Assembly (NCBI GenBank): GCA_001724265.1
Contig: MEDY01000309.1
Span: 1 to 36,953, forward strand
Direction of reading: 5' to 3'
Origin: Rhizaria sp. SCN 62-66
Lineage: Eukaryota
DNA: 36,953 bases
Positions within the stretch are counted from its first letter, which is position 1; each line of letters opens with the position of its first letter. The notes under the pieces are model-generated. The model was not told where the DNA came from, made no database searches, and saw only the letters and a list, made by a program, of their open reading frames with translations. A program made the translations under genes and the position numbers. Shown here piece by piece: positions 8,401 to 36,953 of this stretch.

Positions 8401-10773
8401 TTAGACGCGCTCAAGAAGTTAAGCCGCAAGACCCTGACAACCTTCACCAACTCTAGCGACGGCTCCGGCCCCGGCACGCTCGCCCTGACCCACGCGCCCG
8501 CCGCGCACGCCGCCGCTGCCGCCGAGGCGGGCGCTGCGCCCGCTAATGAGGGCGACGCTGCGGCGGTCGACGACGACCGCGAGTACACGGCCCCCAACGT
8601 CGTCCGCATCTCGGGCATCCGCTCGCAGCCCTCCTCACCCGCGCACGCCAGCCTGAGCGCCGCCGCCGGCACCGCCATTGCCGGCGGCGCGGCGGCCGCT
8701 GCGGGCGCGGCAGGCGCCACTCACAACCACGGCCACAAGCACCCGTCGGCGCTGACTCTCGGCGCCTCTGCCGCCGCCGCTATCGCCGGTGGCGCCGACG
8801 CCGGCATGATGAGCGCCTTCGAGGGCGACTTGACCGACGTCGGCGCGAGCGTCGTCGCAGGCACCGTGCCCGCCGACGGGTTCGACGCCCTCCTCTCCGC
8901 CGCCCCGGCCCCCGTGATCACAGCGGCCGCCGGCGTCACCGTCGCCGCCGCCGGTGCGAACGCTGGCGCTGGCGCTGTGGACGTGGTGAGCGGCGACATG
9001 AGCGACACGATCCTGGGCCTGACGCTGACGAAGCCGCTGATCATGCTGGAGCCCGAGGAGGCGGACGCCAAGCTGACCGCCGCCGCCGCCGCCATCGCCA
9101 CCGCCACCTCGGCACTCGCGCAGCACAGCGCGGACTCCAACGCCGACGCCGGCGCCGGCGCTAGTGTGAAGACTGCTGGCGCTGCCGCCTCTGCGGGTGC
9201 TGCGAAGACCCCCGGCCGCAGCGGTGTGACACACATCATCAGCAACAGCAGCAGCAACAATGCGCCCGGCTCCGGCTCCGGCTCTGGCTCTGGTGCCAAG
9301 GCCACCGTTAGCGCCCTGCCCAAGAGCTCCAGCGCCACTCCGGCCAAGAGCAAGGGCGTAGGCAGCGCAAAGATCCCCTCTGTGGCGAACGACATCGACG
9401 AGACGTACGGCCTGGGCACCGACAACAGCTTCGCCGACGCTGACGCCGACGCCGACGCCGAGGGCGACCGGTACGCCAGCGTCGTGGTCGGCGACGGGAG
9501 CCGGCGCGCCCGCCTGCGCGCGCTGGCTATCAGCGCCGCGGTTGGCGGCGGCGCCATGAGCGCTGCCGAGGACGGGCTGAGCGCTTACGAGTATGACGAC
9601 GGCGACAGCCTCGACGCCGGCGAGGGCGGCGGCAGCACGCCCAGGCGCGCGCGCGTGCGCCGCGGCGGCGATGTGACCGTGAACGGCGGCATGATGAGCG
9701 GTGACAACATCGATAACGACACGGGCACGGCGCGCGACTGCGACACCGACGGCACCGCCACCACCTACACCAACCGCCGCGGCGACGGGCTGCGCGACGC
9801 GGCTGATCTTGGCGACGCCGCGACCGAATTCAACACCGACGTCACCGACCTCAACGACCGTGAGCAGCGGATCGACGCAGTGCACAGCTTCAGTGACCGC
9901 GAGCACGACGCCGGCTCGCTCTCAGACTACGGCTCTACCGGCACCGGCTCCGGCGCTGGCGCGGGCGTTGGGGGCGCTCTTGTTCCTGTCCCGCTCTCGA
10001 CCTCGGCCTCGCTCGTCCTCCTCCCGCGCGCCGCCGCCAGCAGCGACGCCGCCGCCACGGGCGTCGCAGATGCTGACGGCGCGGGCGCGCTCGCCGCCTT
10101 CAGCGACAACGACGCCGCGCACGTGCGCAGCGCCGCCGCCAGCAGCGCCACCGCGCTGACCGTTGCTGCCGCCCCCACCGCGACCTCCGTGGCGACGAGC
10201 GGCGGCGGCGGCGGCGGCGGCGGACTGAGCCGCGGCGAGCAGCGGCAGCGCCGGCACGAGGCGCAGGCGCGCGTCCGCGACACGGTCGAGATCGCGGTGC
10301 GCTCGCGCGAGCTGGCCAAGGAGGCCTCGCTCGAGGTGCTCGCGCAGCAGGAGCAGGCGGGCACCGACGACGAGTGCTTCGGCGCCGTGGCGGCGGTCAT
10401 GACGGTGACGATGACGCTCGGCCAGTGCCTCATGGGGCTGACCGCGGGCGTGCTGATCCACCTCACTGGCTCCATCCAGCACGTCTTCACGCTCACCGCT
10501 GTCTTACTCATCGCCATCCACGTCGGGCTGCTGAGCGTCGAATACCGCGAATGGCGCCGCGACGAGAACATCGCCAACGAGCTCGCGCGCCGCCGCCGCC
10601 AGCGTAGGAAGCTCGAGCGCGAGGCCCGCGCCGTGCAGCGCGCCGCGCGCGCGCTCACTAAGACGGCCGTGCGCGACGCCAAGAAGCAGCAGAAGTCAGA
10701 GGCGCTGCTCAGCAGCAGCAGCATCAGCAGCGCCAGCAAGGGCGGCAGCGGCAGTAAGGCTGCGCATAAGTAA
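2282..10773 (+). CDS. MFS sucrose/H+ symporter-like transporter (SUC/SUT/SLC45 family), about 2772 aa. Exons 2282-7519 and 7693-10773.
   Basis: Family motif WLVNPVFGLVMQPIVGRWTDSCSSPWGRRRPFV, plus D....PSRALIND and multiple TM helices. A phase-0 intron 7520-7692 (GAG|GTACGT...cttag|ACG) joins the 1760-aa and 1019-aa ORFs in frame. Ends TAA at 10771-10773. Confidence 0.88.
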
Positions 10774-11431: not shown

Positions 11432-14400
11432 ATGCCGCCGCGCGCCATATCGAAACGCTCTACAACAGCAGCTGGAGCGGCGTAGACAGAGGCGCCAACT
11501 GCGCGAACATCATCAACGACAACAGCGAAGTCGCACCAGTCGCGGCTAGCGCTTGCCCGCGTCTCGAACAGCAACAGCAAGACTGTTGAAGGCGATGACG
11601 ATGACGACGACGTTCTGATTGTCTCGAGCATCTCCTCAAGCAGCCTTAGCACGAGTTTCACGAGTACGACGGGTGACGACGCTGATGTTGAGATGACACC
11701 TGTCACAAAGCGCAGTCGTCCCCTGGCAATTGCAACAGGAACTGCTAACGCGAGTACCGACGGCAACACCAACAACAAATTGACTGACGCGACTCCGATC
11801 GAGAATGTTTCAGTCGCAGTTGAGAGTGACCATGTAACTAAGCAGCCGCAGCCCTCACAGGTCCAATCGCAACTACCTCAGCCGCACTCGCACTCTTTGT
11901 CGTACCACTCCCTCGGCCCTCTCGAGGCGCGCGTGATTGCGTTGCGCGTCATCGCGTGGTACCGGGCTTCCGCGAGGACGTTTGACTGGCGCGAACGCTA
12001 CCACTGCAGTGAGAGCACATCTGATAGCAGCAATAGTAGATATACCAACAACAACAACAGTGATGATGCGAGTGTAAGTGCGAACGGGAGCATGAGTACA
12101 AGTACGAGCGGTAATAATAGCGCGAACTACTCTGCTGACAGCAGCAATAGCAGTGATGCCACAAATGGCCGTAGCTCCCAGAGTACTTACACGTGGCAGA
12201 CGCTGCCCGCCGCAGCGCGCTACCGTCTCGGTCCCAGCCCTTGCGCCTGTGAGTACCTTCCTTCCCAGTCTGCCTCACAGCAGTCACCCCTGCAGCCTCA
12301 CTCATGCACCGGCTCTAGTTGCAGTGCTAGCACAACTCACACCAACAGCAGCAACAGTAACAGCAACAGCAGCGAAGGTGTCTTTGTCCTCGCCCCGGCC
12401 CTGCGCCTGCTGCTGCGCCCTGGCCTCCCCACGCTCACAGCGCCCGCGCCGGCCTCTTTGGCGCGCCCGGCGCCGCCGCCACTGCGGTCGTGCCACGCGC
12501 TGGCCTACCGCACCCTGCTCTCCGAAGTCCTGCTGCAGCAAACGGGCACCGCGCGCGTCGCCGCCGCGTTTCCGCGCTTCCTCGCAGCCTTCCCCACGCT
12601 GCGAGCGCTCGCTCGCGCGCCCGTGGCTGCCGCCGAGGCCGCCTGGGCCGGCGTCGGCTACTACGCACGGGCGCGCGCACTGCACAGCGCCGCCGGGGCG
12701 CTGCTCGCGATGGCGGAGCAGGAGTCGCCGACGGCGACGACGTCGAGCTTGAGCTTAGACGACGCTGCTCCTGTCCCAGTGCCTCGCTCCGTGCCCGCAC
12801 TACTTACCCTGCCGGGTGTCGGCCCTTACACGGCCGGCGCCATCGCCGCCGAGGCCTTCGGACTGCCCGCGCCGGCGGTCGACACCAATGTGCTCCGTGT
12901 CGTCACCAGGCTCCGCGCACTCTATGCGGCCCCCGCCGCCGCGCTGGCGTCGGGCAAGTACCAGCACCGGCTAGACGACGACGGCGGCGCATCCGGCGGG
13001 GAGATAAGCGCTGCGGGGAAGGGCAAAGGCAAAGGTCGACAATCGAATAAGGCCAAGGGTAAGGGAAAAGGCGAGAAATGCAGCACGAATGATGACGATG
13101 ATGATGATGTGGTTGTCATTGATAGTGACCATGACAACGACGATCATAACAAGAGCCCGCTTCCGAGTTCGACTTTGAGTGTGATCAAGAATGCGGGTAG
13201 TGGTGATATTGTTGACAAAAGCAGTGTCTCTAAGATCTTACAAGGACCCTTAGTTCCCCTGCTCACAGCCACACTCTCACCAACTGCCGCTGCTTCCGCT
13301 GCTTCTGCCTCTGTGACTGGGAATAATAGCGACGCGCGCGCTGCGAGCGGCTTCGACCCCGAGAGCTCCGGCCTGCCGCTGCTGCCGGCGGCCACGGCGG
13401 GCGCCGCGGTGTGGCGCACTGCGGCCGCACTCGCCAGGGGCGCCTGGGCGCTCACCAACGCCAAAGACGAGTGCGTCCAGATCAACAGCAACTCGAGTGG
13501 CATCGCTGATATCGAAGACATTGCCAACGATGGCGACCCGATCGTCTCACGCCCCGCCCCGCCTGCCCGTAGCCAGTCCGTGGTGCAGTGGAGCGGGTTT
13601 GCGGACGCCTTCCTGGCCTCGGAGATGCTGCAGGGGCTGATGGAGCTAGGCGCGACCGTGTGCCTGCCGCGCCTGACCCACTGCAGCCGTTGCCCGCTGC
13701 GCCCGCACTGCAGGGCCGCCGGGGAGGCGGAACTCAACAGCAACAGCGCAAACGCGGCGAGCAACGGGAGCAGCAACAGCATTAACAGCAGCGGTGTCAG
13801 CGGCTCTAGTAAGAGGCTACGGGTGCAGGACAGGTGGGCGCTGGCGCTCGCTCGCAACAGGCAGGAACAACAGCAGCAGCAAGCTCAACTTGACTCACCC
13901 TTTAAGCCCGAGTCTAAGCCTGAGTCCGAGGATTACGCGTCGAAGTGGCTCGAGTGGGCGCGGGGCCGCGAGTACTGGCTCCGGCACGGCTGCCCTCCTC
14001 AACTCCGCCCTGCTTCCTCCTCCGCTGACGCGGCCACTGCTGCTCACAGCCTCCCTGCTGTAACTGAACCTTCAGGGCCGATGTTGCCGCCTGCTCCGTA
14101 CGATGCTGCGAGCATGCCTGCCTTCGACGATTACAACGGCTTTGCTTCTGACGCGCGCGGATTAACTTTGTCGCAGCACGTGTACATGTTCCCAGAGCTA
14201 GCTGACCCCGAGAGTGAGACGTCGGTGGCCACCGCAGCGAATATAGTGCGCACACTGCTCGCGCAACAGCTGCAACAGCAACAGCAACAGCAGCAGCAGC
14301 AGCAACAGCACGAAGTGGAGTCCGAGTCATCAGCCTTGTCGCAGTTGCAGTCGCGACTGCAGCCGTTGCCGCCGACGCCACCCCACTTGCTGCAGTGGCG

Positions 14401-19448: not shown

Positions 19449-22400
19449 TCAGCCGGTCTTGTTGACTGCACGCAGCGGCGTGATGAGGTTCCGCAGCTCC
19501 GCGCACACGACCTCGACGGAGAAGGGCGTCGTGACAAGAGCGGTGACGAACCGTTCCACGCCGCCCCCCGTCGCCACGGCCGCGACCGCGGACGCAGCGG
19601 CGGCAGCCTGGGGCGCGTTGGGACCGTTGGCGGCGGCGGCCGCGGCGGCGGCGGCGGCCGCGGCGGCGGCAGCGGAGGAGACGGCACCATTCCAGCGGTC
19701 GACGAGCGACTGCGGGAACGAGGGCTCTGAGTCGAAGAGCAGGCGGTAGAGCGAGACGACCTCGCGCAGCAGCCCGGTGAAGGAGCTGTCCTTGTCGTTA
19801 AGCTGCGGCAGCAGCACCAGGTCCGAGGCGATGGCGACGATCTGTTGCGGCAGTCCGCGCTGCTGCGCGACCGCGGCAAGCAGGTTGTTGGCGGCCCAGA
19901 AGCGGATGAAGAGCCGCAGCAGCTGCACGCTGGTGCGGTAGCCGGCCGTATCGGTGGGGCTGCTGAGCGTCATCTGCTCCAGCACGCTCTCGCACAGCGA
20001 CGGGAGCGTGTCGGCGTGGTGCAGCAGCACGGCGTCGAGCTTCGACGACAGACATTCGCGCAGGAAAAGGTAGAAGACGCGCACCATCTCGGCGCGGCAC
20101 GCGCGCTGCTGCGAGAGCGCGGCCGCTAGCTCCACGCCGGGCTCCGGCTCGGGCGGCGCCGAGACAGAGGCCAGGCACGCGAAGTGCTTCTCCACGACGG
20201 GCACGAAGACGTTGGCGAGCACAGGCGCGAAGTCGGCGCCGAAGCGCGCCATGAGCTGGTTGGTGAGCTCCACCACGCGTCCGATGTTATTGGCGTCCGA
20301 GCATTGCAGCATGACCGTCAGTGCGGGCGCGAGCGCCTGCAGCGCGTTGGCGCGCATCACCTCGACGATGACGTGCAAGAACGCGATCGTCTTGGCGCGG
20401 AGCAGCTCGTCCGCGGGCGCGATACTGTACGCGGCCATGACCTGCCCGAACGAGTGCTCGAGCGCCTGGCGCGTGCCCGCATCCTCGGCCTCGGTGGGCG
20501 TCATGCCCTTGATGACCGTGAGCAGCGCCTGCACGAGCTGCGCCGCGCGCTTCGTCACGACGTCGGCCAGCGTCGGCATCGCCGCGGGCGCGGCCGCCAC
20601 AAGGTGCGTCAGCGGCTCGAGGGCGACCATCATGGCGCGCTGGAAGAGCGCCGGCGAGTGCGGGCCGGCGACCGAGGACGAGCAAACCATCGAGAGGCAC
20701 TCGCAGAGGTGCACACAGTCGGTGAAAGACACGCGGCCCTTGAGCCCGCGCTGCGCGCCGCGCGAGAGCACGCTCGAGATGACGTCAGAGAGCGCCGTGG
20801 TGAGCTCCAGCAGAAAGGGCTGCAGGTGCGACTTGATGCTATCCTGCGAGGTGAAGGCGCGGATGGTCTTGGTGAGCTGATAGGACGCGGCGGCGCGGAG
20901 CTCGACGACCGGGGAGCAGATGCCGCGGTCGTCGAGGAAGATTTGCAGCACGCAGGGCAGCATCTGAGGGCACATCTCGAGCACCTTATGGTAGCGCGCG
21001 AGGCACTCGTACAGCGAGGTCGCCACCAGCACATTGGGGTGGTACGTCAGCGGCGAGAGGAAGAGCGACGCGAAGGCCGAGCACCAGGGCTCCGTCGTCA
21101 GCGCGGCCATGATGCCCTTGCCCACGGCGTCGCCGAGCACGAAGATGAGGTGGATAGCCGACTCGATGCTCGCAAACGGCAGCTGCGCCACGGCCGACCG
21201 GCCCGCCGTCGACAGCACCGAGGCAACCGCAGGCAGGCTGCCCGGGGCGGCCGCGGCGGCGGCCGCGGCGGCGGCCGCGGCGGCGGAGGCGGCGGCGGCG
21301 GGATTGTTCATGAGCGTCTTGTTGAGGTACTCCCCCGCGTAGCCGACGGTGTCCCCGGGCGCGGCGGCAACAACAGCGAGCGCGACCTGCGCCAGCATCG
21401 AGTGCAGCAGCTCAAGTCCGTAGTCGACGCACGCGTCGCGCGCCACGAGGACCAAGGTGCGGAACACGCGGTCGAGGCGCTGTGCGCGGTACTGCTCGAA
21501 GCGCGCCTCGCGGTCGTCGCGCGTGTCTGCGTGGAGCGTGTCGCCCTCGGTCGAGTGCCAGGGCGGGTAGCGCCAGCCCGCGACGACGGCCTCAAGGCTC
21601 GTGTCGACCACCGACTTGTGCGCGTGCTGCATCACGCCAGTGTACTTGAACAGCGAGAGGAACTCGCTCAGCGCGTCCGTGGCCTGGAAACCCACCTCGA
21701 ACGTGGGGTTCCGCAGGCTCGACAGCAGACACGCGGCCGCGCGCAGCAGCAGCGTCTCGTTGGCGTGCACCGACGCCAGCTCCTCAGGGAAGAGTGTCTG
21801 CGTGAAGGACGCAAAGTCGGGGCACAGCACCACGGCGCGCGTGCGCGTGGAGCCGTCCGCCGCGGTCACCGTCACCTGCTTGCCTCCGCCGGCCGCGCCG
21901 CCTCTGCCGCCGGCGCCCGCCTGCTGGTGCTTGGCGGCGTGCGACGCGGCGCCGAAGACCGACTGCGTGGCGCGGCTGGAGCCCGAGGCGGCGGCGCGCG
22001 CCTTGGTGCGCATGTCGTTGCCCGGGTACGTGGGGATAATCTCGACGCCGCCGTCGAGGACCTCGTCGTAGCAGGCCGTGAGCTGCGTCACGAGCGCGGC
22101 CGCAAACTTGGTCATGGCGCACGCAAAGGTGGTGAAGTAGCCGTCGTACTCGGTCACTTCTTCCTCCTGGGAGAAGTCGAACTTTTCGATGATGGACACG
22201 AAATCCATCTGCTCGATCAACGCGAGACGCTTCAGCCTAAAAATAACCCGAAAAGAGACGACAGGCAAAGGCGAGCAGCAACAAATAAACAAATGAGCAT
22301 GAGATATTTTCGAGAAAGAGGTACACCTCGTCAGAGAATCGTCGAACTATAGTTCTTTGTTTTCTAGTTAAAATTAAAATGAAAGTGTTCAATTAAATAA

Positions 22401-23525
22401 ATATAGAGATGATTTGTAAGAGCGTACCTGGGCATGCCCTTGGTGGTGATGGCGGTGAGGACCGCGGCAGCGCCGTTGCGGAGCGTGGGCTCCGACAACA
22501 GGTTAAACAGCAGCGGGAAAAACTTATCATTGACGACGAGGTCGAGCTCGATCCACTCGACGTAGACGGCTAGGATGCTGAGGGCTGACAGCGCGAGAGC
22601 GGGGTGCGAGCCCATATAAGTCAGGATGATCGTCTCCAACGCGCCCACGATGGCAGGGAGCGGGCCTGCGCGCATGGCGTCCTTGATGCCCATCGCGATG
22701 ACGGCGTCCATGCGCTCGCGCGTCTGACCCGTCGACATGGTCGTGTCGGCCTTGATGATGTCTTCTTCGAGCGTCGTGAGCGTGAGCACGAAGAGCTCCG
22801 CGGGGACGGCGCCCTGGGGCAGGAACGAGATGAAGTCGTCGAAGAAGCTCGGCCACGCGCCCGGGTAGTCGCTCTTAGCGATGGCCGTGAGACACGTCGC
22901 CACGCGAGCCGTGACGTACTTCGGCACGGGGTGCGCGGGCAGCACGTCGCGCACATAAAGCAGCAGCTGGGTCCGGATGAACGACTTGGCCTCCTCGCCC
23001 AGCGCCTGGTAACGCTGCTCGATGCCGCGCTGCAGCATGTTTAGGCACACGAATTTGACGTGGTCGTGCCGCTGTGTCAGCGTCGCCGTGTGGAGACGCT
23101 CGAGGCAGAGGCGGAACATGTCCGCGCTGTCAGAGACGGAGCGCAGGTAGTCGCGCGCGGCCTCCGCCGTCGCCGGGTCAGAGGTCGCCACGTGCACGTA
23201 CGCCACAAGCACCGCGCGCTCGAAGTCGTCCTGTGGTGGCGTTATGAGATGAGTATCGTAGAGGCGAGAAGCGAACCATGTGTGAGAAGACGTAATAGTG
23301 GGGACCTTGCGTGGAGATAGAGTACTTATGGAAAATAAAGTTGCAATGTGAAAAGTATATGTAAAAATGTGTGGATTTTCTTTGGTTAAAGTTGGAAACA
23401 AGCGAATAAATGTGGCCAATTGCAGTGCTTAAAGAACGTACCTGGGCGGTGGCGGCCGAGGCCGAGGCCGCCGCGGAAGCGGAGGCTGCGGAGGCCGGCG
23501 CCGACGGTGATGCGAGGCCGGACAT
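19449..23525 (-). CDS. XPOT: Exportin-T (tRNA exportin, Los1/PAUSED-like importin-beta family), about 1224 aa. Exons 23525-23442, 23230-22428 and 22236-19449.
   Basis: IBN_N/Xpo1-like N-terminus (HVKFVCLNML, DYPGAWPSFF, IKDAMR, YVEWIELDLVVNDKF, KGMP) and downstream YECLARY and FLDDRGI..P...LRAAASYQL motifs typical of exportin-T. Introns 23441-23231 (phase 0, GTACGT..cag) and 22427-22237 (phase 2, GTACGC..tag) keep frame. Ends TGA at 19451-19449. Confidence 0.9.
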
Positions 23526-25794
23526 TGTGTGGGTGAATTAATTAAACAGAAAACGGACGAGCAGAGGCAGCAGCAAATGGGCTGGCTCTGAGTCGGTGCG
23601 CGCGAACGGGCAGCGGTGCGCTGTCAGTCGAGAGCCTGTGGCGCGGGCAAAGCTGTGAGGCGAGCGAGCGAGGCTGAGTCGAGAGTGCTGACGCTGCTGT
23701 GGGCTGCAAGTCGCGACTACGGTGGCGGCGAGAGCGAGAGGCAACGCGGGGAAGCGAGCGGGCGGGAGCGGGGCCGTTCGCGAGGGCGTACGCGGGAGCG
23801 CGAGCGAGAGCTTCGGGGGGGCTTGCGGCGGCTCTGGGGTAGCAGCAGCGGCAGCCGGGGGACTTAAGGAACTGAACTGCCTTGCTTTCACTGCCGGAGA
23901 GGACAGTTAGGGAAACGCGGGGTCGGAGACGCGTTTGCGGGGCAACGCGCAAAGGGCGAGCGCGGGCTTGGGGCGGCGAGCAGCGACGAGAGCGGCAGCA
24001 GCAACAGTGGCAGCGGCCAGCAACAGACGCGACGCCTATACGCCACAGAAGAAGCAAAGAAGGAAATATGATCGCAAAAACAAAGAAATTAGCTCATGCA
24101 AGCAGAGTTGAATTGGAGATTCTTGGTCGTATCGTTATTGACAATCCAAATAGGATGCAAAACGGGGTGGCAAAAGCACGTTTTGATCCTCGTGTTCGGG
24201 CGAGGCCAGAAAGAGCAGCTGCACCGGGGCCTACTCTAGGGCCCCAATACGCATGATAAATCCGTCTGACGCGTTCAACGACAGAATATGTGGTGTCCAA
24301 GCGCAAGAACATGTCGCTGGTTGGTAGCCGAAAAGCTTAAAGTGAAACGGGAGGGACTACGTGCAAACAAGGGCAAAGAATTGTCCGCGTCCTCGGCAAG
24401 TGCGCGCACCGCAAAAATAACCCGGAAAACGGCACGCAAACAAGTGCAAGCACCGGGATGAAGCACATAGAACAGAAAAAAGTGACAATAACTCAATTCC
24501 ACCAAAACTTTGCCATAAAGCTGACTTCACAACGAATTACAGCGGTCTATCAAATACAGCCCGCCGCCCTCTGCCTTCGTCGGCATCTGGCCGAGTGACC
24601 GTGAGCAAGGTAATTGCCACTTTAGGAATGGCATCAAGCAGCTGACACCACGCCAATGCGCTATCTAGCTTTGTGCATCACATTAAAGTCGTGTTTTTTA
24701 TATTTTCCTAAAATAACACTGTGACATTGCTCCATCTTGACGATCTTCAACGCGCTTTTCAGTCTTCCTCTTTGACCTAGTCTCTAACCGCTCGCCAACT
24801 CCACGCCGTACCCTTGGTAGCCGCATCTACTCTTCTTCAACACGCATGTCGTCACTGTTTAAGGGCTGTATGTTGAGTGTATTTGCTAGCTGATGTGTCA
24901 TTCCTTTTCTTTGAGCTTCGGAAGTGTGTGTTCGTGTGGGTCCTGTGACCCATGCGGCTGTTACCAACCGTTGCGACCGCTTGTGCTGTTTTCCTCTTTG
25001 TACGCACTTACTAGTTACTCTTAGCGATAACCTTAAGCCCCTGTGATTTTTGAGTGGACTTAGTACCTACGAGCGCTGTTTTATGTAGCTCAGGCATTGT
25101 CTTGATAGCACAGCAGCACCTAAGGGGAGAGATGTTCATAGCAGCAAATCCCTACTTCGATCATATTCTAGAAGTCAGATATCGTGACGATTATAATGGG
25201 CAATGCTATTTAAACCGATTTATTACATACTATTTGTAACGATGTATTACATATTACAATATTTTTAACTGTAGATGTTGTTTAAGTACATAAGTCCCTG
25301 CATTTGTGGAAGCTCACCGCCGCCTTCCTTGGATATCTACTTCTCCTCAATAACCTCAAAGGATAAACAAACAAAGTCACATAGACAGCGCATTGTGGCA
25401 ATGTTTATATCTCTATTTTAATTGCCTAATAAATACCAATTTAAGTTGAGAGAGCAACGCTGACGCTGTGTAGCCTCCATAAAACACGATCCAGACTTCC
25501 TCCGCCTCGTGCATCATCATTCTGCCTTGGACGGCAACTCAAACATTGCATACATCGCACGTATTCAGAAGACTAAGATATATAATAGAGATATTATATG
25601 TAAATGGTGTCTTTCTGTTTTAATTTTTAACCATATTTGCGCTGACGGAAGCACCAGCGAAATATCCATCCCCGACTGACCCCATTCCCCTTTCCTCCTG
25701 CTGTTCGCCCCTCTTCCCTCCCGTGCGCCACCCCAGCCGCCCCCGCGGCTGTTCCTTCCTCTCCCCGCCTTCCCCACCCCGTTCCGCGCGGCAG

Positions 25795-28700
25795 ATGGGC
25801 GGCGCCGTGTCCGCGCTGCTGGGCAGCAGCGTGCCGACGCTGCGCGCGGTGTTCAAGGAGCTGACCGTGCCGCTGCTCTCAGGCGACTGGCCGGCGCTGC
25901 TGCGCAACGCGCGCTTCTGGGCCTTCGCCGCGCGCATCCGCGCCACACCGCGCTACCTACTGCTGCTGCGCGCGCAGATGGCTTCGGTGCTGGCCGAGGG
26001 CGACGCGGCCATCGCGGTGCTGCTGCGCGCCGCGCTGCCCACGGTCCCGCCCGCGGGCACGGCGCTCGTGCTCTCGGTGCTGCGCCTGCCCTTCGTGACG
26101 GCCATGCTGCAGTCCGTCTGGTTCTGGGCGCTGCTGCTCGACAGGGAGTTTGTGCAGGGCATGCTCGGCATTAACTACGAGTTCGGCTTCGCAGGGTACG
26201 CGTCTCATCATAACAAAGCAAACGCTGATCAAATTGTGCTATTTTTCACTAAATTGTGTATATCTCGCTTTTATGATATCCTTAACGAACTATACTGCAT
26301 TAATGCATTAAATTCATTTTTTTCCAAAATACTGTATGTTTTCGTTTGGTTTTGTGTTTGCTATATAGATCAACGATCGCGATGATTCTGGCGCAACTGT
26401 CTCGTCCGGAGGTCACCTACTTACTCAGCGACATCGAGCTGCTCACAACCAAGGCGGCCGCTGCGACAGCTATGGCGGCGAAAGATAAAACACAAGCTAA
26501 AAACAAAACAAAGCAGAGTGGAACTAAGACTAACGCGAAGACGAACACAAACGCGCCGATTAGTGCAAGTGCGAAATCAAGTGAGAGCGAAACTAATGGT
26601 GGCTCCGCCTCTGCCGCCCCTGTCACGCCTCGATTGGGTTTCAGCACAAGTGCCTTATTCCAGCGTTTATGCGCAGATGCCGCCACACTATCCCGCAACT
26701 TAGCCCTCTACGCCAGCAAGCAGCGGAAACAGCTAAGGCAGCAACAACAACAGCAGCAACATCAGCAGCACCACTAGCCGTTGCAGCAACAGGTATTGCA
26801 GCCCCCGAAGCGTCTGTGGGTGACTGTGCTGCGCTTTGCGGCCTCGGCCTCGGTCTCGGCGCTGGCGGCCGACCCCGCGCTAGACCAAGCGGTCGAGGCC
26901 CTTACACGGCCACTTACACCCGACGAGGCACTGAGACAGAGGGCGATGATGCAGACGCTGGAGTCGGCCGACGCAGCCACCGCAGCAACTGCTACCGCAG
27001 CAGCAGCGACTACAGCAAAGACCGAGACTGCTCCTGCAGCTGCGCCTGCAACCGCGACTGTGACGTCGATTGCAGCTGAAACTGCGCCGTCAATCGAGAC
27101 TGAGACTGCGGCTGAGACTGTGGTGGGGGCATTGGTGCGGCTGCTGTGGGCGCGTTTGTCAGTCGCGCTGGACACTTACACTGCGCCCAAGGGTACTTAC
27201 ACCTCTCCAGCGAATACCACTGCTAAGACACAGCAGGCTACTGGCACCAAGGACAGCGACAAGGCCGCCGCGGCCGACTGCGACGCCGCGACTGACAATG
27301 AGGAGGCTGCGAATGACCGGGAGGGTGCGAGCCTTGGCGCGCTGCTCCGCGCCTCGTGCGCCGCCATCGCGGACTTTGCGCGCAGTCCGCTGATGCGCGC
27401 GCCGGTGTGCAGCAGCAAAACACATGCAAACACATCCACTGACGTAAACAGCAGCTCGAACGTTGCGCAACAGCAGCCTAGCGCGGGTGACCGTGGGCAG
27501 GAGGTGGTGACTGTGGGTATGTTTCTGGCGCATCACATTGATGTCGTTATCGACGGCTGCCGCTTGTTTTCGCGTGATTTGCTGACCCTGCTGCGTGAAG
27601 GTCTCCAAGAAGCAGCGAAACAGCACAAAGAGCAGCAAATTCTCCGCAAGCAGCAGCAGCAGCAGCAAGAGAATGAGCAGCAGCAACATCAGCAACAACA
27701 GCGCGCATCATTGCAACGGCAATCTGAAAACGCGAGTGCGAGCACGCCTGCTCCGAGTGCTGATGCCGGTGTCGTGCGAACTGTGCCCATTTGGCCTGAC
27801 GCTTCAGCTGCAAGAGTCCCCGTCAATAACAACAAATATAGCAAAATCACTGCAGATTCTGTGAGCGCAAAGGACTCGACTCTTGACAGTGTGATTGACG
27901 GCCATATTGACTCATTTCTTCAGCAAGATCTCTCTGAAGACGACGCTACTCGCAACAACTCGCTGCCACACTCACAGATGCCGTCACAGTCCCAGCTACA
28001 GCCACAGCTACAGCTACAACAACAGTCGCACTTGTAGTCGTCGCTGGCCACCTCCCCCTGGTCGGTATGGCTGCCCCAGTCGATCCTGCTGCTCTCGCTC
28101 GCGCGCTGGGCCGTGCTGAGCCCGCAGTCGTTGCGGGGCGTGCTGATGCTCGCGATGGCGGCACCGGCGTGGGGGCAGGTCTGCGCCTCTGCCGCCACTG
28201 CCGCAGTCGCAGGCACTGCTCCAACCCCAGCCACAGCCACTGCCGCTGCCACTGCCGCTGTGACAGCCGCAACCGAGGACTTGGCGTTGCTCTATGACCA
28301 GTATTTGGCGACTCTCCGCAGCAATAATGCCTATAGCGGCCCCAGCACCTGTTCGGGCGATCAGACTGACTCACGACCTGCGTCGGCTGCGCAGGCCGTG
28401 TTGGCGCCCCTCGTCGCGGCTGTGAGCTGTCCCTTCGCACGCTCGCTCGTCTCGCTCCTTTTGAGTCCCGCAGCGAAAGCGCACGGGGCGACGAGCAGCG
28501 CGAGTAGTTACTGCTGGTCACTGCGTGAGTTGCAGAAAGCGACGTCTCGCGGCTTAACTGCCGGAGGGGGCGACTTGACTTCTCATGCGAGCGATCAACT
28601 GGGTCTAATTGTCCCTTTCTCCCCTTTCTCGCAACTCTCGCAAAAGCTCGCTCACAACACACACAACGCCACGTGTACAGCGAGCTCTCCCGTCAGCCCT

Positions 28701-31700
28701 GCTGGCTGCGCGGCCGTGGTGCCCGTCGTCGCGGTGGTCGTGGCCAGCGTGCGCGACGCACTCGCGCTGCTGGGCGCCGCGTCGCAAATGCCTGCAGACT
28801 GCGTCGACTGCGAGCGCGGCGAGTGTCAGTGCCAGAGTTAGCGCCAGCGCCAGCGCCAGTGTCAGAGCCAGTACAGGATGAGTGACTCTGAGCATGAGAA
28901 GAACAGTGACCGTGAGCGTGTGCGTGACTCTGAGCAGCGCGGTCAGTGCTTGTATCACGTCGACGGCGACTGTGAGCTGGACGTTAGTGATCATGAACAC
29001 CGGCAGCAAAATTCACCGCAGCTTCTGATGCAGCGCCAGCAGTATTGTCAGCTCCTACAACTGTGGGACTGTAGCAATGTGCAAAGCGCTGCTGTAAGCG
29101 CCAACGACGGAGGCGATCCTAGCACCACCACTACTCACAACAAGAATAACAAACACGGTGGCAAGAGTAAGAGTGCAAAGAGTGCAAAGCCTAGTCAAAG
29201 CTGGTGGTCTAAACTCTGGCCTTGGAGTGATAACACCTCTACCACTAGTGCCGACACGACTGCTGTAGCTGCGACGGTCAACAGTGCTGCTGAGAGCGTC
29301 CCTGTCTCATCAGCTTCTGCCAGTCACAGTGACAGTCTCGCTACCGCAACTGCGGCGACAGTGCCCACAGTCACCCCCTCCCCCTCCGTGCTCACGGTTA
29401 CTCTCCCGCTGGACCTGCCCCTCGTGCACACGCTCTCTCGCTTCTGCGACGCGATGCTGCTCGCAGTGCCCACGCTCGTGCCTCACAGCGCTGACTCGAC
29501 CGCGACTGCAGCGGGCTCAGAGACTGCGACCGCGCCGCTGCTGGCCTCACTTGTCTCGCAAGTCTTCTTCACGCCCGCCGTGCTGGCCTCGTTTCTTGGC
29601 ACCATGTGGGTCGACTCGCTTCTCTGGACACTTGCGGAGTCGCTCCAACAGCAAACCCCTGCCACGGCCTCAACAGCAGCAGCAGCGGCAGCAGCGACGC
29701 CGGGAACAAGGCTAGGGACAACCGCAGCACCATTAGCTCTGGCCGCGAGCGCGTCGCCCACTGTCGGCCCGCTGCGCATGCTCTATCTGCGCACGCAGGC
29801 CAACGCGGCCGCTTCGATCCGTCTCGGGCGCATTTTTTCGGCCCCCGCCGTTGTGGCCGCGTTCGTCGCGCGCGCCGCGGGCTGGCGCACCGTGGGCGGC
29901 CGCGCGTTCAGGCGCGTGTTCAGCATCGGCGCGCTGACCGAGAGCGAGCTCGACGCCTACACCGGCGCTAACACCTCGAACAGCACTCACATGAACCCGA
30001 ACACGGGCGCGGGCAGTCACAGTGGCGGCGCTAGCGGGAGGATGGGTGTCGGGACAGCGATTACGGCCTTCGTTGGCGATATTGTTGCTGGCCTTGCGGA
30101 TATCCACTTGCATTCCGGCAGGTATTTGCATGGCGCCGATGGACAATTACGCTTTGATGCTAACAGCAACAAAGACGGACTGCTGAACGTGAACACTAAT
30201 GCAGCTTTGGTAAAGGAGTCTCATGCACAGACACATGTCCCTTTGCTATCTCTCGAACAACTGCAATCCCAGTCTCTGTTGCGCTCGCAGTCGCAGCAAC
30301 AGACGCAGTCGCGCTCGCTGCTTGTGCCGCTGCTGCAGTCGCCGTGGCTGGTCGCGTCCTGCTTGCATATCGTTCTGGCTCGTTTGTGGCCTGCCTGCGT
30401 CAACACCACAACTGCAACAACTGCAGCAACAACGTCAAACAACACAAACTCGCACTTAAGCGCGGGCGCGAGCACTCGTGCCGCTGCAGTCTTCCCGTGG
30501 GCCGCGTGCGTTGTCGCGATCATGCTGTCTGCGCTCACGGTCACTCCGCCTGCGTCGAACGGCGTCAGTACAAGCTCTGTCGGGAACCTAAGTGCCGCCC
30601 TTGGAGATGTCAATAACAGCTCTTCAGTGTTCACGCCGATCGTGTACAAAGAGGCGCGCGCCGCGGTGCTTGCGCTTGTGACTCACCCACTTACACTGCC
30701 GTACATCAGCCATCTAAGTACCTATCTAAGTGCCGCAAACAACAAGGACAACGTCAACAAACAGCAACAACAACGCGCTACAACGACGCTTTACACGAAC
30801 AACAGCACGAGCCCTGTGAGCACTGCCAATCACAATATGCATACACACAGTACCATTAACAATGGTGCTGGTTCAAGTGCTGGTGTCGGCGTCAGCGTTG
30901 GTAATCGAGTGAAAATGGGTTTTGTTAATGCGAGTCCGAAGGTAAAGCAACTCTTTTCTCGTATTGCGCAAATGCGCAAGCAGCAACAGCAGCAAAAGCA
31001 ACAGCAGTTGCCGCCCCAGGCACAGTTACGTTCTAGCTCAAGCTCCAATGCGAGTGCTAATGTGAATCAGCCACAGCCGCAGTCGCATTCACAGTCGCAT
31101 GTCCCGCTGCTGTTGTTTCCCCCGCGGCCACTGCTGCGCGTGTTGCTGGCGTCTGCACCCACGCTGCTGTCTCTCATCTTGTCGGCTGTTGCGAGCGCTC
31201 ACAGTCACCCTCCAGCGCCCGCACACGCGCTGCCACAGTCATAGTCACATTCTTTGAGTAACGCTGGTGTTGATCAAGTGAACAACTCCGCTGTTGCCGC
31301 TTCTGCTCCTGCTGCCGTGCATGCGACTGAAGCCAAGGCCCGCCTGTGCGCCGCTGCCCGTGTGAACGCTGCGGCCGAGACGCACGGTCGGCTCACGCGT
31401 TTGTTCATCGCCAACACGTCGCGCTCCATCGCGCGGCTTGCAGCCGCGGACAGAATCACGCCAGATATTAATGCAAGTGCTTCTGGCTCCGGTGTAAATG
31501 GGTGCTTTGTTGCAGCGCGCCACCTCGCACGCTTACTCGTCACAGACCCTTCAAACAACGCCGCCTCCACTAACCCAACCGCAGCGGCGACAGCGGCGAC
31601 AACGGCGACGATGAATGTCAAGACGAAGCATAGCGAAGCTGTATGTGCGCGTGTGTGTGTGCGCAGCGGCGTGCTGCAGCTGCTCACGGTCAGTTTCTGG

Positions 31701-34700
31701 CTCGCAGCGCGTCAGCTCGCGCGTCGTGCGCAGCTGCGCAGTGCCGAAGTCGCTGTGCCGCCGAAAACGCCATCGGATTCTGGCAAACTCAACGGCAATG
31801 TGCATACCAATAGCTGTGATGTTAGTGATGATGATCAAGACGACAGCGACTACTTTAGCGATCATGATGATGACGACACTGATTGCGACTTTGAGACGAG
31901 CATGAACACTGTTAGAACTTCCAGCAGTGGTGTTGTAAGCCGTGTGCGTGCTTCTTTGCCCGGTGTCAGCCAGTTCTTGTACCACACTGCCGTCCCGGTA
32001 CTGTCGCGCGCGCTCACGCTCTCTGCGGCGCTGGACTCATGGATGCCCACGACTACTGGAAGCGGGAGTCTCAGCACCCGCTTAGATCTCACTCCGAACA
32101 TTAAGTCAAGCGTGAAGACCAAAGCGGCAGCGGTTGATGCGGCGCTGCTGTCTCTCACCCAGCAGTTTACGACGAACGCTCACATCACGTGCCCTTGCCC
32201 CTGCGCTTGCCATAACAGCATCAACAACATTATCAGCTCCAGCAGCGTAAACGCACATTCGAGCTCTCCGGACTCAAGTTTCAGTTGCCGTGATGACTGC
32301 GGATTTGCGTGTAGCTGCGGTGTTGTACATGTGTCGGTAGCGTTTCAACAGCCGCCCGCATCCGAGCGCGTGCACTCGCAGTCCCAGCCATTGCTGTCAC
32401 AGTCGTCGAGCTCGCAGCTTTCTTCAAGCTCGCAGTCGCTGATGGTGCGCTCGCGCTCTGTTGTTGTCGATGCGTTATTTCCCACAAATCCAATGAATAG
32501 TAATGTTCGGAGCAGTGCGAGTGTCAATAACGATGATGCTCGAGTTGATGCTCTCAAAACAACTGCGATCCGCCTCCGTCTTCATTTGAACACTGACAAG
32601 AACAGTGACACTGACAACAGTAACGACTCTGACACTAATGTGATCAACAGCAATGGAAGCAACAACTCGAGCACCAGTAAGAACAGCAGCACGAACACTC
32701 AGAGTGTGAATGCAATGACATCTGCTCGCGCACTAGCTTCCCGTCTCTACCCCGCGTCTCCCGCCTCTTCACTAAGGGGTGGCCGCGTCGCAACGGCAAC
32801 AGTGTCGTCTCTCGCCCTCGCATGCACGCATTACCTGCCGTCACTGCCATTACGAGTGCGGCTTTATTTCGATATTGCATCGCCCGCCCTGACTAACAGC
32901 AACAACAATGGTGGCATCAAGATTGACAGTGATCTCGATACAGCTGCCTTAAGTGACCGCGGGCGCAGTTTAGCAACGGACTCTCAACTCCTGCCGTTGC
33001 TGCAGCAGCGCTACCCTGCCACGCTCTCAGCCGCTGCCACGGCCGACGCGCTGCTGCTGCCGGCGCTGGCAATTGCGCACAGTGGCGCTGTGGCCGCGGT
33101 GGCCGGCAGCGAGGCGCTGGCGAACGCGATCGCGCTGGCCTGGGACAGGGCGCGGCTTTACAGAGGCAAGATTATCCGCAACAGCAACAACAACAACAAC
33201 AGCAACAACAGCACGAGCGAGAACACAAGCAATACCACTAATGCTGGTCACGTCAACAGTAGCTTTGCTAATACCGCTGGTTTCGGTTCCCACACCACCA
33301 GCGGTAGCTCCAGCGCGGCCAGCGGTCTCTCCCTGCTCTCGGCGTCGCCGGCCTCTGCGGCGCGGCTTGTCGGCCTTGGTCGCAGTCTAGCCAAGGACTC
33401 CACACTGCGCGCGGCCCTAGGTACGATCAATATACATGTATATTGATTCAATCAAAACTTTGACAAGCAAATCACTATCCTGACTATTATCAATTGCATT
33501 CATGACTTCGATCAACTTTACTTCGCTTTTTTTAATTGTTTTCATTGATAGTGCGCATCGCCGAGTCTCCGCTGCCAACTGTGGCGCCGCCTTTGATTGC
33601 TCTTCTGCTTGTTTTACTCGCACCAACAACAGCAACAGCGACCGCTACAACTGAGGCTACTGCTACTAATGCTAGCGGTGCTAATGTTGATGTTCAGAGT
33701 GACTGCTATGTGCGTGCGTTTGTCGCTACTGTGTTGTTCACAGTCACTTGCACATCAAACGCGCAGACAACAACACAAACGCAAGCCAGCACGGCCGCAA
33801 CTTACGCGTCAACGCTGAGCAATGGACGCACGACTAACATCAGCAATGACGCCAGTGTTGATACGAGTACAAGTGGTAACGACAGTGATAGTGTCAGTGA
33901 TGCAAGTGAGAACTCTGGTTTTGGTTTTATTCTTGATTTGCCCTCTGTTTTTGCTGCTGCTCTCAAGTCAGACTGCGATGTCGCAACTGCTGGCTCTAAA
34001 AGCGCCAGTAAGAGTGGTAACAACGGCAGCGTGATAGGCCACAAAAGTGAGTTCACATCGCTGTTAGAGCGACTTTCTGCGATTCTCACGCTTCTCATTC
34101 CTTTGCAACTGCCGCTTAGCAACACCACCACCTCGACAACGCATGGTCCAACATCTGCACCAGCGACAACGGAAGCTACTGCGGCGACGGCGGCCGCTGC
34201 GAATGTGACTAAGCTGGCACAAACACTGCTTAAGGTTGCTAGGGCGAATCAGCGGTGGGACCTCCAAGGTAAGTATAAGGACAACGCTCACTAAATGCAT
34301 TTTATCATAATCGTACAAGATGTCGTATATTGAATCATTAGATGAAGAAACTGCAATATATCTCTGAAAAATTACTGATTTTACATCTTCTCTCGTCGTA
34401 TCCCCGTCACATCTCCCAGGTCTACTAACCTCCAAGGCGACAGCAAAGGCTCTTTTGTCACCGGCAAGTGTGCTGCTGCTGGCGCGGGGGCGGGTGGCTC
34501 AGCTCAAGACACTGCTGGGCGGCGGCGGCAACAACAACACCAGCGCTATGAGCAACAGTGGTCGCAGCAGCAGCAACAGCAGTCATACTGCTGGTGGGAG
34601 TAACAGCGCGATGAGTATTGTGGGTGAACTGATGCGTGAAGGCTTTGCTGTGAGTAATACCTCCAGCAACAGTACCAACAGCTTGACCACAAACAACACT

Positions 34701-35588
34701 GCGAGCAAACTAGCTCACAGCAACCCGAACGTGGCCAGTGTTGCACCTGGAGCTGTTGCAACGCTTGCTAACAGCATTACTCCGAGTGACGCTGACGCTG
34801 ATGCTCTTTCCACAATAACGAGTGCTGACCCTGCTGCAAATGATGATAAACACAGTGCCTGCTATGACAAAGGCTCGGATGGTGACAACATCAAGAGCAG
34901 TGTCACTGTTACTGCCAACACATCTCAGGTTCCTGCGTTGATTTACAACGCCGATTCTCGCGACATCACGTCATCCACTCCTATCACCACAGCGACCGCA
35001 ACAACTCAAACAACGACCACTGGGACCGACGCTCCTGTTGGCAGTATTGGCATCCTCAACAGTGACAGTAATGTCAACGCCAGTCCCATCGCTGGTGTCA
35101 ATGCCAGTGTCGGTGCCAGTGACAAGGACGACGTTACGACTCTGAGCGCTCTGGCTCGACTCAGGGCTCGCATCAAGACGCGCATGCAACAAAAGGAAGC
35201 GCAGCCTCACTCAAAAGATGCGCCCCCACAAGCATCAACTGAGACTCAGTCACAGACACAGACACTTCCGCAGCAACAGCTCCAGCAATTACAACTACCG
35301 CCGTCAACCCAGTCGCCGCCGCTGCAGCTGCAGCAACAATCGCAGACGCCGCGGCGCTTCTTACCACTGCGTGTACTCACGCAACGCAACACAAACACGA
35401 TTTCGAACAACGGCAATAGCAATAGCACAACCAGACGTGCTCCGATATCTCTGTACAACGCCACAACTGCTACAATTTCGGTCGTCCCTATGCAAGTGAA
35501 CGCAGTTCATGGTCGTGACTGGAATGCCGGTATTGTTGACATAGTACGGGGTTTCAACGACGATTTGCCTATCGTTGCGCAATTCTAA
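25795..35588 (+). CDS. Giant hypothetical low-complexity protein, at least 3112 aa, with four in-frame TAG codons. Exons 25795-26195, 26369-33420, 33552-34268 and 34420-35588. The 5' end is uncertain.
   Basis: ORFs 26346, 26781, 28113, 28878 and 31254 share one frame and are separated only by TAG (26775, 28035, 28839, 31242). Introns 26196-26368 (phase 2), 33421-33551 (phase 1) and 34269-34419 (phase 1) have GT-AG ends with matching phases. Ends TAA at 35586-35588. The ATG at 25795 directly follows a polypyrimidine-CAG acceptor, so upstream exons probably exist. Confidence 0.8.
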
Positions 35589-36019: not shown

Positions 36020-36092
36020 AGTTCTATAGCTCAGTGGTATGAGCATTGGTCTAATAAGCCAATGGTCCTGGGTTCGACCCCCAGTAGGACTA
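36020..36092 (+). tRNA. tRNA-Ile(AAT), copy 1
   Basis: 73-nt cloverleaf: acceptor AGTTCTA/TAGGACT+A, D-arm GCTC/GAGC, anticodon stem TTGGT/GCCAA with loop CTAATAA (AAT at 36053-36055), T-arm CTGGG-TTCGACC-CCCAG. It is followed immediately by a T-run (Pol III terminator). Confidence 0.95.
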
Positions 36093-36251: not shown

Positions 36252-36324
36252 AGTTCTATAGCTCAGTGGTATGAGCATTGGTCTAATAAGCCAATGGTCC
36301 TGGGTTCGACCCCCAGTAGGACTA
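36252..36324 (+). tRNA. tRNA-Ile(AAT), copy 2
   Basis: Identical 73-nt sequence 232 bp downstream (anticodon 36285-36287), also followed by a T-run. Confidence 0.95.
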
Positions 36325-36918
36325 TTTTTTTATACAAGGCTCCTTTGGGGCCTTGTCTATCGTTTTGCGCGCAATTACACTGCGCATCACCGCCCTACGC
36401 ACCGTCGCACTCCTTCGCACACCGCTGCCGCCTCCGGTCCGCTCTACCGCTTCGCTGCCATGGAGCTACCTTTCCTTTTTGCCTCGGTGGTGCTCTCTTG
36501 ACTACCTCCATCTCTCCACGCTCCAGTCGCTTGCGCTGACTTGTTCAAGTTGCGAGTCATGCGAGTTAGACAGTCGCACAGTCACTGTTCAGGTCCAGTC
36601 GTAGCACTGTGCATTGACTCTCATGAACACCCAGCACTGCGACAGTTGCCGACCAGGTGTCATGACGCTTTCAGGGTTACATGCCGCGCTCAGTTGTGCT
36701 TGCCCAGTCATGGTCACTGTTGTCACTCAGTGTACTGTTGCAACCGAAGAGACAGCTGTCTACTTGATGGACACAACAGCGTGACACTTATATTAGAAGT
36801 GTGCATTCATGCATGAACAGCATGAATGCGAGCTAGAGCCTGTTTTAGTGTTGTTATAGTAGTATATATTTAAGCGGACTATAACTCACACGAACAAAAA
36901 TGAACTATCGCATAAGTC

Positions 36919-36951
36919 ATCATAACTCAGTCACGATCATAACTCAGTCAC
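36919..36951. repeat. Short tandem repeat, 17-bp unit ATCATAACTCAGTCACG, about 2 copies, at the window edge
   Basis: atcataactcagtcacg followed by atcataactcagtcac, read directly from the sequence. Confidence 0.6.
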
Positions 36952-36953
36952 TG

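Follow-up and report, generated by a model that had tools for sequence, protein, structure and literature searches.

Contig MEDY01000309.1, a stretch of 36,953 bases that we analyzed over its whole length (the window), contains a gene of 2492 codons that carries four in-frame TAG codons and ends at TGA. We found these TAGs to be genuine and fixed and to occupy Gln-type positions; on both sides of them and beyond the last one, the gene remains intact and conserved. We consider it probable that TAG is translated in this organism, and the reading we favor on balance is that it is translated as glutamine (Gln), with TGA, and probably TAA, still serving as terminators. Translation of the TAGs, glutamine as the residue, and a mechanism involving a tRNA and the release factor eRF1 are all points that we infer.

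The gene is modeled as two exons whose joining keeps the frame (Table 1), and the TAGs are codons 270, 690, 958, and 1759. With a codon model trained on the window's other genes, under which intergenic sequence scores about −0.96, exon 1 scores 0.338 in frame versus −0.79 and −0.42 off-frame, and all six segments of the gene (exon 1 and the five pieces cut at the TAGs) score best in frame 0. No segment contains an in-frame TAA or TGA, versus 1 to 36 off-frame, and no frameshift was found over 7.4 kb (2492 codons). The frame that holds the TAGs contains four TAG, no TAA, and no TGA over 2354 codons; the remaining five frames contain 11 to 31 TAG, 8 to 33 TAA, and 32 to 61 TGA. The predicted 173-nucleotide (nt) intron resembles the homology-confirmed intron of the window's exportin-T gene in its 5′ splice motif, length class, and AT-richness; no RNA contig among the matches listed bridges it.

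Conservation extends past the last TAG. HMMER, run exhaustively against 1.84 billion representatives with residues spanning TAG 3 and TAG 4 as the query, returned four proteins: three are pieces of the window's own gene, cut at the TAGs by gene callers, and one is a relative, P0005 (898 amino acids [aa]). P0005 is collinear with the window protein from about position 29880 to the final residue, its open reading frame (ORF) is uninterrupted at the TAG 4 column, and strongly conserved blocks lie on either side of that column. In the downstream block LLQLLTV.FWLAARQLARRAQLR, 23 of 24 residues are identical, and the 730 downstream codons are conserved and collinear with the P0005 ORF. Since P0005 is collinear and, in places, nearly identical past TAG 4, what the gene encodes beyond its last TAG belongs to the same protein and is conserved.

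The two proteins differ in length: from 29700 to 33443 the window encodes 1248 aa, compared with 898 aa in P0005 over the collinear region, and the excess consists of low-complexity insertions (poly-Q, poly-N, Ser/Thr/Ala runs, and an acidic D-rich run). Tandem arrays have periods that are multiples of 3, with three exceptions, and the overall picture suggests a lineage-specific expansion of microsatellites within coding regions. The encoded protein is rich in Ala, Ser, Leu, and Thr, contains 5.9% Gln, and is largely of low complexity. It matched no Pfam family at an E value of ≤0.01; at ≤1, two subthreshold matches appeared, both in the N-terminal part, and exon 1 and P0005 had no match. For P0005, the ESM Atlas gave no usable feature, and its structure matches all had template modeling (TM) scores of 0.14 to 0.27. 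An alignment of the window protein and P0005, run against metagenome and genome contigs, gave pattern matches and no confirmed relatives.

To compare the TAGs across samples we used contigs from other sequencing runs; runs X2, X4, and X6 represent three studies other than the probable source of the window, and the figures that follow come from the matches listed. X2 contigs carry TAG 1 (23990-26876), TAG 2 (26899-28674), and TAG 4 (30888-33170); an X4 contig carries TAG 3 (28225-31143); and X6 contigs carry TAG 2 (27847-28090) and, at the very end of the contig, TAG 3 (28694-28844), in every case with letters identical to those of the window. No variant falls on a TAG among these matches. Across the gene, X2 and the window differ at three sites, two of them synonymous third positions and one an Ala-to-Thr change, in samples taken ten years apart. 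Assembly error was rejected as a source of the TAGs, because in three other studies long contigs anchored by unique flanking sequence are letter-identical there. Introns at the TAG sites were rejected as well: the 400 nt that precede each TAG contain no GTAYG motif, and no AT-rich island lies near a TAG (the GC content near the TAGs is 0.60 to 0.66, and the lowest 60-nt value within ±200 nt is 0.43 to 0.53). In the polyA-RNA run X5, contigs without differences match 26444-26681, 27004-27639, and 29573-29848 (three of the eight X5 pieces listed). These lie before TAG 1, between TAG 1 and TAG 2, and between TAG 3 and TAG 4, respectively, and attest to presence in an RNA library, not to translation or to the state of the TAG sites.

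The surroundings of the TAGs point to glutamine codons as their source. TAG 3 lies in a hexanucleotide repeat whose codons, from 28824 to 28874, are TGT CAG TGC CAG AGT TAG CGC CAG CGC CAG CGC CAG TGT CAG AGC CAG TAC; the Q-register codon is CAG in seven of eight places and TAG (28839) in the eighth. A first-pass annotation of the window had read this peptide as C-Q-C-Q-S-[TAG]-R-Q-R-Q-R-Q-C-Q-S-Q-Y, and we recovered that register at the same place and in the frame of the long ORF. Its descriptions of the other three contexts (26775, 28035, and 31242) also hold, with the small correction that seven Q, not six, precede the first H at 26775. A similar peptide, QSHSQSH, lies ∼50 codons upstream of TAG 4. 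From TAG 1 to TAG 4, the preceding codons are CAC, TTG, AGT, and TCA, and the following codons are CCG, TCG, CGC, and TCA.

Measured against four random positions of the same protein, the four sites are enriched for Gln within ±6 residues (P = 0.003); the corresponding P values are 0.0015 at ±10 and 0.06 at ±3. The best-fitting of 20 residue classes for the TAG neighborhoods is Q; its lead is 0.56 natural logarithm (ln) units at ±3, compared with 2.1 to 2.4 at ±6 and ±10. Descent of the TAGs from Gln (CAG) codons, as the annotation had proposed, is thus well supported by the repeat register and the Gln-rich neighborhoods. Its further proposal, that TAG is decoded as Gln, is partly supported: the intact and conserved frame points to a gene that is still read past the TAGs. 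Judged from sequence, Gln would be the most parsimonious residue, because it is one transition from CAG.

If TAG specifies Gln, the four TAGs would have arisen by C-to-T transitions at CAG inside slippage-prone, CAG-rich microsatellites; under such a code these transitions would be synonymous, and the TAGs would be retained for that reason. As is usual for UAG-to-Gln codes, UAG would be read by a tRNA-Gln that has CUA as its anticodon and derives from tRNA-Gln(CUG/UUG), and the release factor would no longer be efficient at UAG termination.

Several results weigh against translation of TAG as Gln. The window's other five genes (∼5,900 codons) have no TAG in their certain coding parts, where, at the TAG-bearing gene's rate of 4 TAGs to 148 Gln codons, about 5 would be expected in 197 Gln codons (P of none, ∼0.005). 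That all four in-frame stops are TAG is weak evidence, with a probability of 0.08 to 0.12 under random nonsense substitution, and a Gln-like context is equally expected from CAG-to-TAG nonsense mutations. If TAG is assumed to terminate 25% of genes ordinarily, its lack at all six well-supported gene ends has a probability of ∼0.18. The only ortholog column, that of TAG 4, has V in P0005 and lies in an unconserved linker; being variable, it is uninformative on the residue. Among the X5 RNA contigs listed, none extends over a TAG site, and the X5 library may include DNA carry-over. Within the window there is no gene for a tRNA(CUA), the only tRNA genes being two for Ile(AAT).

The missing TAGs in other genes look less severe if TAG tracks CAA. 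Expectation then drops to 3.4, with a probability of 0.03 for none and 0.15 for none or one. Such tracking is plausible because genes with a high GC content at third codon positions (GC3) avoid CAA. GC3 ranges from 0.53 to 0.92 among the window's genes: it is 0.84 to 0.92 in an MFS-like gene, gene 7714-10773, and exportin-T, and 0.53 to 0.66 in an HhH-GPD gene, the TAG-bearing gene, and gene 34548-35588. TAGs and CAA codons cluster in the genes of lower GC3, with 47 CAA in the TAG-bearing gene, 19 in the HhH-GPD gene, and 0 to 6 in genes with GC3 of >0.8. The conserved parts of the exportin-T, HhH-GPD, and MFS-like genes contain no in-frame TAG. The HhH-GPD gene has a possible N-terminal extension, which holds a candidate fifth in-frame TAG at 11483-11485 in surroundings that are not rich in Gln (A A G A A [TAG] T E A P). 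Between this TAG and the first later ATG (11693) are 69 open codons, none of them ATG, that score 0.209 in frame versus −0.51 and −0.29 off-frame. This TAG may be a fifth sense TAG; the alternatives are an upstream exon or a long 5′ untranslated region. Another TAG, which precedes gene 7714-10773, was rejected because the AT-rich extension that contains it (GC 0.45) is not coding-like.

Terminators at the six well-supported gene ends are TGA, TAA, TAA, TGA, TGA, and TAA, with TAG at none, and two weaker ORFs likewise end at TAA. In-frame TAA is absent from ∼8,400 codons; ∼1.9 would be expected in the TAG-bearing gene from its CAA:CAG ratio. Three of the six genes end at TAA where GC falls (from 0.70 to 0.29 in g2), and the next in-frame TGA follows the TAA by 2 to 32 codons in g2, g3, and g6, so that TAA as a sense codon would hardly alter the proteins.

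The standard code could be retained if the gene were a recent pseudogene, or a dispensable gene, in which four CAG-to-TAG nonsense transitions had occurred and translation ended at codon 270. This is the best placed of the alternatives, and we consider it unlikely. The first-pass annotation had rightly cautioned that nonsense codons arise most commonly from CAG by a change to TAG: the gene has 101 CAG-type codons, and TAG accounts for 53 to 59% of random nonsense substitutions, which leaves the probability of four TAGs in four at ∼0.1, not a small value. Every certain TAG is confined to one gene, whose product has no known family and is largely of low complexity, and so could be dispensable. 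Decay of this kind should have left other traces. Nonsense paths make up 2.8% of substitutions, and four nonsense changes therefore imply ∼140 neutral substitutions, which insertions and deletions would accompany. The gene shows neither frameshift nor TAA nor TGA in its 2492 codons before the terminator, and codon bias in frame 0 is kept in six of six segments; the blocks past TAG 4 are nearly identical to those of a distant relative, and ten years between samples brought three differing sites, two of them synonymous. RNA contigs also match regions downstream of TAG 1 and TAG 3. None of the hallmarks of a pseudogene (mixed stops, frameshifts, lost codon bias, and lost downstream conservation) was found.

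Under a second form of the standard code, UAG would be leaky, and a near-cognate tRNA-Gln would read through it in a Gln-rich context to yield some full-length protein. Gln runs contain or adjoin three of the four sites, and two of the TAGs are followed by C at +4, a base that weakens termination according to PMC13192750. A Gln codon directly adjoins the TAG at none of the four sites, however, and the protein contains 5.9% Gln, compared with 7 to 20% in the yeast cases described in that report. Moreover, four serial stops, each read through at 2 to 8%, would leave ∼1 in 100,000 or fewer full-length chains; this is too weak to explain a maintained downstream ORF, and we regard readthrough as quite improbable.

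TAG might instead be a sense codon with one of the other meanings known from UAG reassignments (Leu, Glu, Ser, Tyr, or Lys), with CAG-to-TAG changes tolerated in disordered, low-complexity tracts. Nuclear codes with UAG as Leu, Glu, or Ser exist (PMC5304391, PMC11687900), all sites lie in poorly conserved linkers, the TAG 4 column is V in P0005, and the possible fifth TAG (11483) is outside a Gln context. TAGs that encoded another residue would mostly occupy the places of TTG, GAG, TCG, or TAY, yet the neighborhoods favor Q, and TAG 3 sits in exact CAG register. With four sites only, exclusion of other residues is soft; we give this explanation slightly less credence than readthrough. Finally, removal or change of the TAGs before translation (by short in-frame introns or U-to-C RNA editing) or their origin as repeat assembly artifacts is least credible of all: TAG does end in AG like a 3′ splice site, and the sites adjoin repeats to which many foreign contigs in the metagenomes are drawn, with depth spikes and loose ends at 26738-26770 and 28840-28872, but there is no GTACGC-type motif or AT-rich island near the TAGs, the window's introns are 173 to 191 nt long, the same letters recur in unique-flank contigs from three other studies, and none of the RNA-run joints listed takes out a TAG site.

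We return, then, to TAG as a sense codon, probably for Gln. Nuclear stop codon reassignments are rare, and UAG-only cases are rarer still; in the papers cited here, a change of UAG without UAA is reported for one fornicate, a rhizarian, a green alga, and a few ciliate lineages. If the reading is true, it would represent an independent origin in a further non-ciliate, GC-rich lineage, and the sparse use of TAG would be a natural example of early codon capture. We put forward only tentatively the more specific idea of an early capture in which UAG (as Gln) has become uncoupled from UAA (as stop) in a lineage outside those known to have variant codes. It draws on the frequency of TAG, which makes up ∼0.05% of codons and occurs almost only at mutating CAG microsatellites, and on the sole detectable relative, which is uninterrupted at the homologous place. 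Were it true, it would show how a stop codon first re-enters coding sequence: through synonymous drift from C to T where genes of lower GC3 have Q tracts under low constraint. A fresh pseudogene would, by comparison, be an ordinary finding. There is also a practical side: pieces of the gene cut at the TAGs stand as separate proteins in public collections, and since gene callers using the standard or bacterial code cut the gene at each TAG, eukaryote metagenome bins would be misannotated until the code is settled.

The window is eukaryotic nuclear DNA, with GC-rich exons and AT-rich introns and intergenic DNA. It has two GT..AG introns in all, of 173 and 191 nt, with GC of 0.31 to 0.34, and both begin with GTACGC. 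Matching contigs come from bioreactor, wastewater, activated-sludge, and fuel-cell metagenomes of several studies dated 2015 to 2025, and runs X1 to X4 each contain 88 to 99% of the words sampled from the window; the source is an uncultured eukaryote of engineered waters, GC-rich and intron-bearing. Besides exportin-T, Pfam identified the HhH-GPD base-excision repair gene and the MFS-like gene. The spliced junction peptide of exportin-T agrees with P0001, a relative's exportin-T of 1119 aa (57% identity), which was the one match among 8000 scored candidates in the homology search; the lineage is thinly sampled. Poly-Ala and Gly-rich insertions in the window's exportin-T are missing from P0001. 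An exportin-T alignment run against metagenome, genome, and viral contigs gave pattern matches and no confirmed relatives. A minus-strand TAG at 22364-22366 was rejected as a coding TAG, as it sits inside the exportin-T intron and ends the upstream ORF.

No eRF1 gene was found in the 36,953 bases. Coding-like ORFs that lack a Pfam family and end at TAA occur at 33536-34294 and 34368-35588 on the plus strand and at 1-462; the first of these may be a small gene in its own right, or it may belong to the following gene as an exon. The left edge of the window is open on both strands (1-462 on the plus strand and 1-414 on the minus strand). At position 36930, X2, X4, and X5 contigs are 2 bases shorter than the window, and joints and loose ends bunch at 36883-36953; either a repeat at the window end or faulty assembly there may account for this.

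Table 1. Positions of the TAG-bearing gene, its TAG codons, and other features of the window
Feature	Positions	Strand	Basis or remark
Exon 1 of TAG-bearing gene; ATG at 25795; 133 codons + 2 bases	25795-26195	plus	coding in a single frame only
Intron of TAG-bearing gene (predicted); 173 nt; GC 0.31; GTACGC...TATATAG	26196-26368	plus	motif, length class, AT-richness
Exon 2 of TAG-bearing gene; carries all four in-frame TAGs; TGA at 33444-33446	26369-33446	plus	frame; collinearity with P0005
TAG 1; ...Q H Q Q H H [TAG] P L Q Q Q	26775-26777	plus	5 nt past a (CAR)n array
TAG 2; Q L Q P Q L Q L Q Q Q S H L [TAG] S S	28035-28037	plus	codon display
TAG 3; CAG slot of x-Q hexanucleotide repeat	28839-28841	plus	codon display; Tandem Repeats Finder
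TAG 4; L P Q S [TAG] S H S	31242-31244	plus	variable linker between two blocks conserved in P0005
(NNN-CAG)n array; period 6/12/18; encodes alternating x-Q peptide	28822-28872	plus	Tandem Repeats Finder scores 43 to 60
Possible N-terminal extension of HhH-GPD gene; ATG at 11432	11432-11692	plus	coding-like; suggestion only
Exportin-T gene	19449-23419	minus	Pfam Xpo1 (E = 8e-25), Exportin-T (E = 2e-16)
Exportin-T intron; 191 nt; GTACGC...TTTTTAG; GC 0.34	22427 down to 22237	minus	removal preserves frame
tRNA-Ile(AAT); two identical copies, 232 nt apart	36020-36092, 36252-36324	plus	tandem duplication

Three known systems offer a comparison. In yeast, premature stops flanked by Gln in Q-rich transcripts (the QXQ motif) are read through at 2 to 8% with Gln inserted, as reported in PMC13192750. 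The stops in the window resemble these in deriving from Gln codons inside Q-rich, low-complexity regions; they differ in that no Gln codon flanks them and that four occur in series.

A reassignment of both UAA and UAG (UAR) to Gln (NCBI table 6) is described for many ciliates, hexamitin diplomonads, Ulvophyceae, oxymonads, and, according to PMC5304391, PMC6299283, and PMC11687900, the aphelid Amoeboaphelidium protococcarum; PMC10942620 describes an expansion of Q-rich proteins in UAR-to-Gln ciliates. The window shares with this code a stop captured by Gln, at a single C/U difference from CAG/CAA, and TAGs in Q-rich tracts. It departs from it in having no TAA versus four TAGs in the 2492-codon gene, where only ∼1.9 TAA are expected. 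Aphelids inhabit algal ponds and similar engineered waters, according to PMC6299283; we regard a possible aphelid link as only a literature lead. The window is unlike a ciliate nanochromosome in its GC-rich exons, AT-rich introns of 170 to 190 nt, and multigene contigs.

The third system is Iotanema spirale, in which UAG encodes Gln while UAA and UGA remain stops: PMC5304391 reports 204 in-frame UAGs in 126 genes, UAG as the terminator of 0 of 119 complete transcripts, and Gln in 22 of 28 hyperconserved columns. A UAG-only Gln code is also described in PMC11687900 for Protocruzia tuzeti and two phyllopharyngean ciliate lineages. Unlike I. spirale, the window offers four certain TAGs in one of six genes and no informative ortholog column; like it, the window has in-frame TAG with no in-frame TAA or TGA, TAG at none of six gene ends, and TAGs in positions of Gln type. 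Taken together, the data fit a UAG-only Gln code, and the commoner UAR-to-Gln code is compatible with them too.

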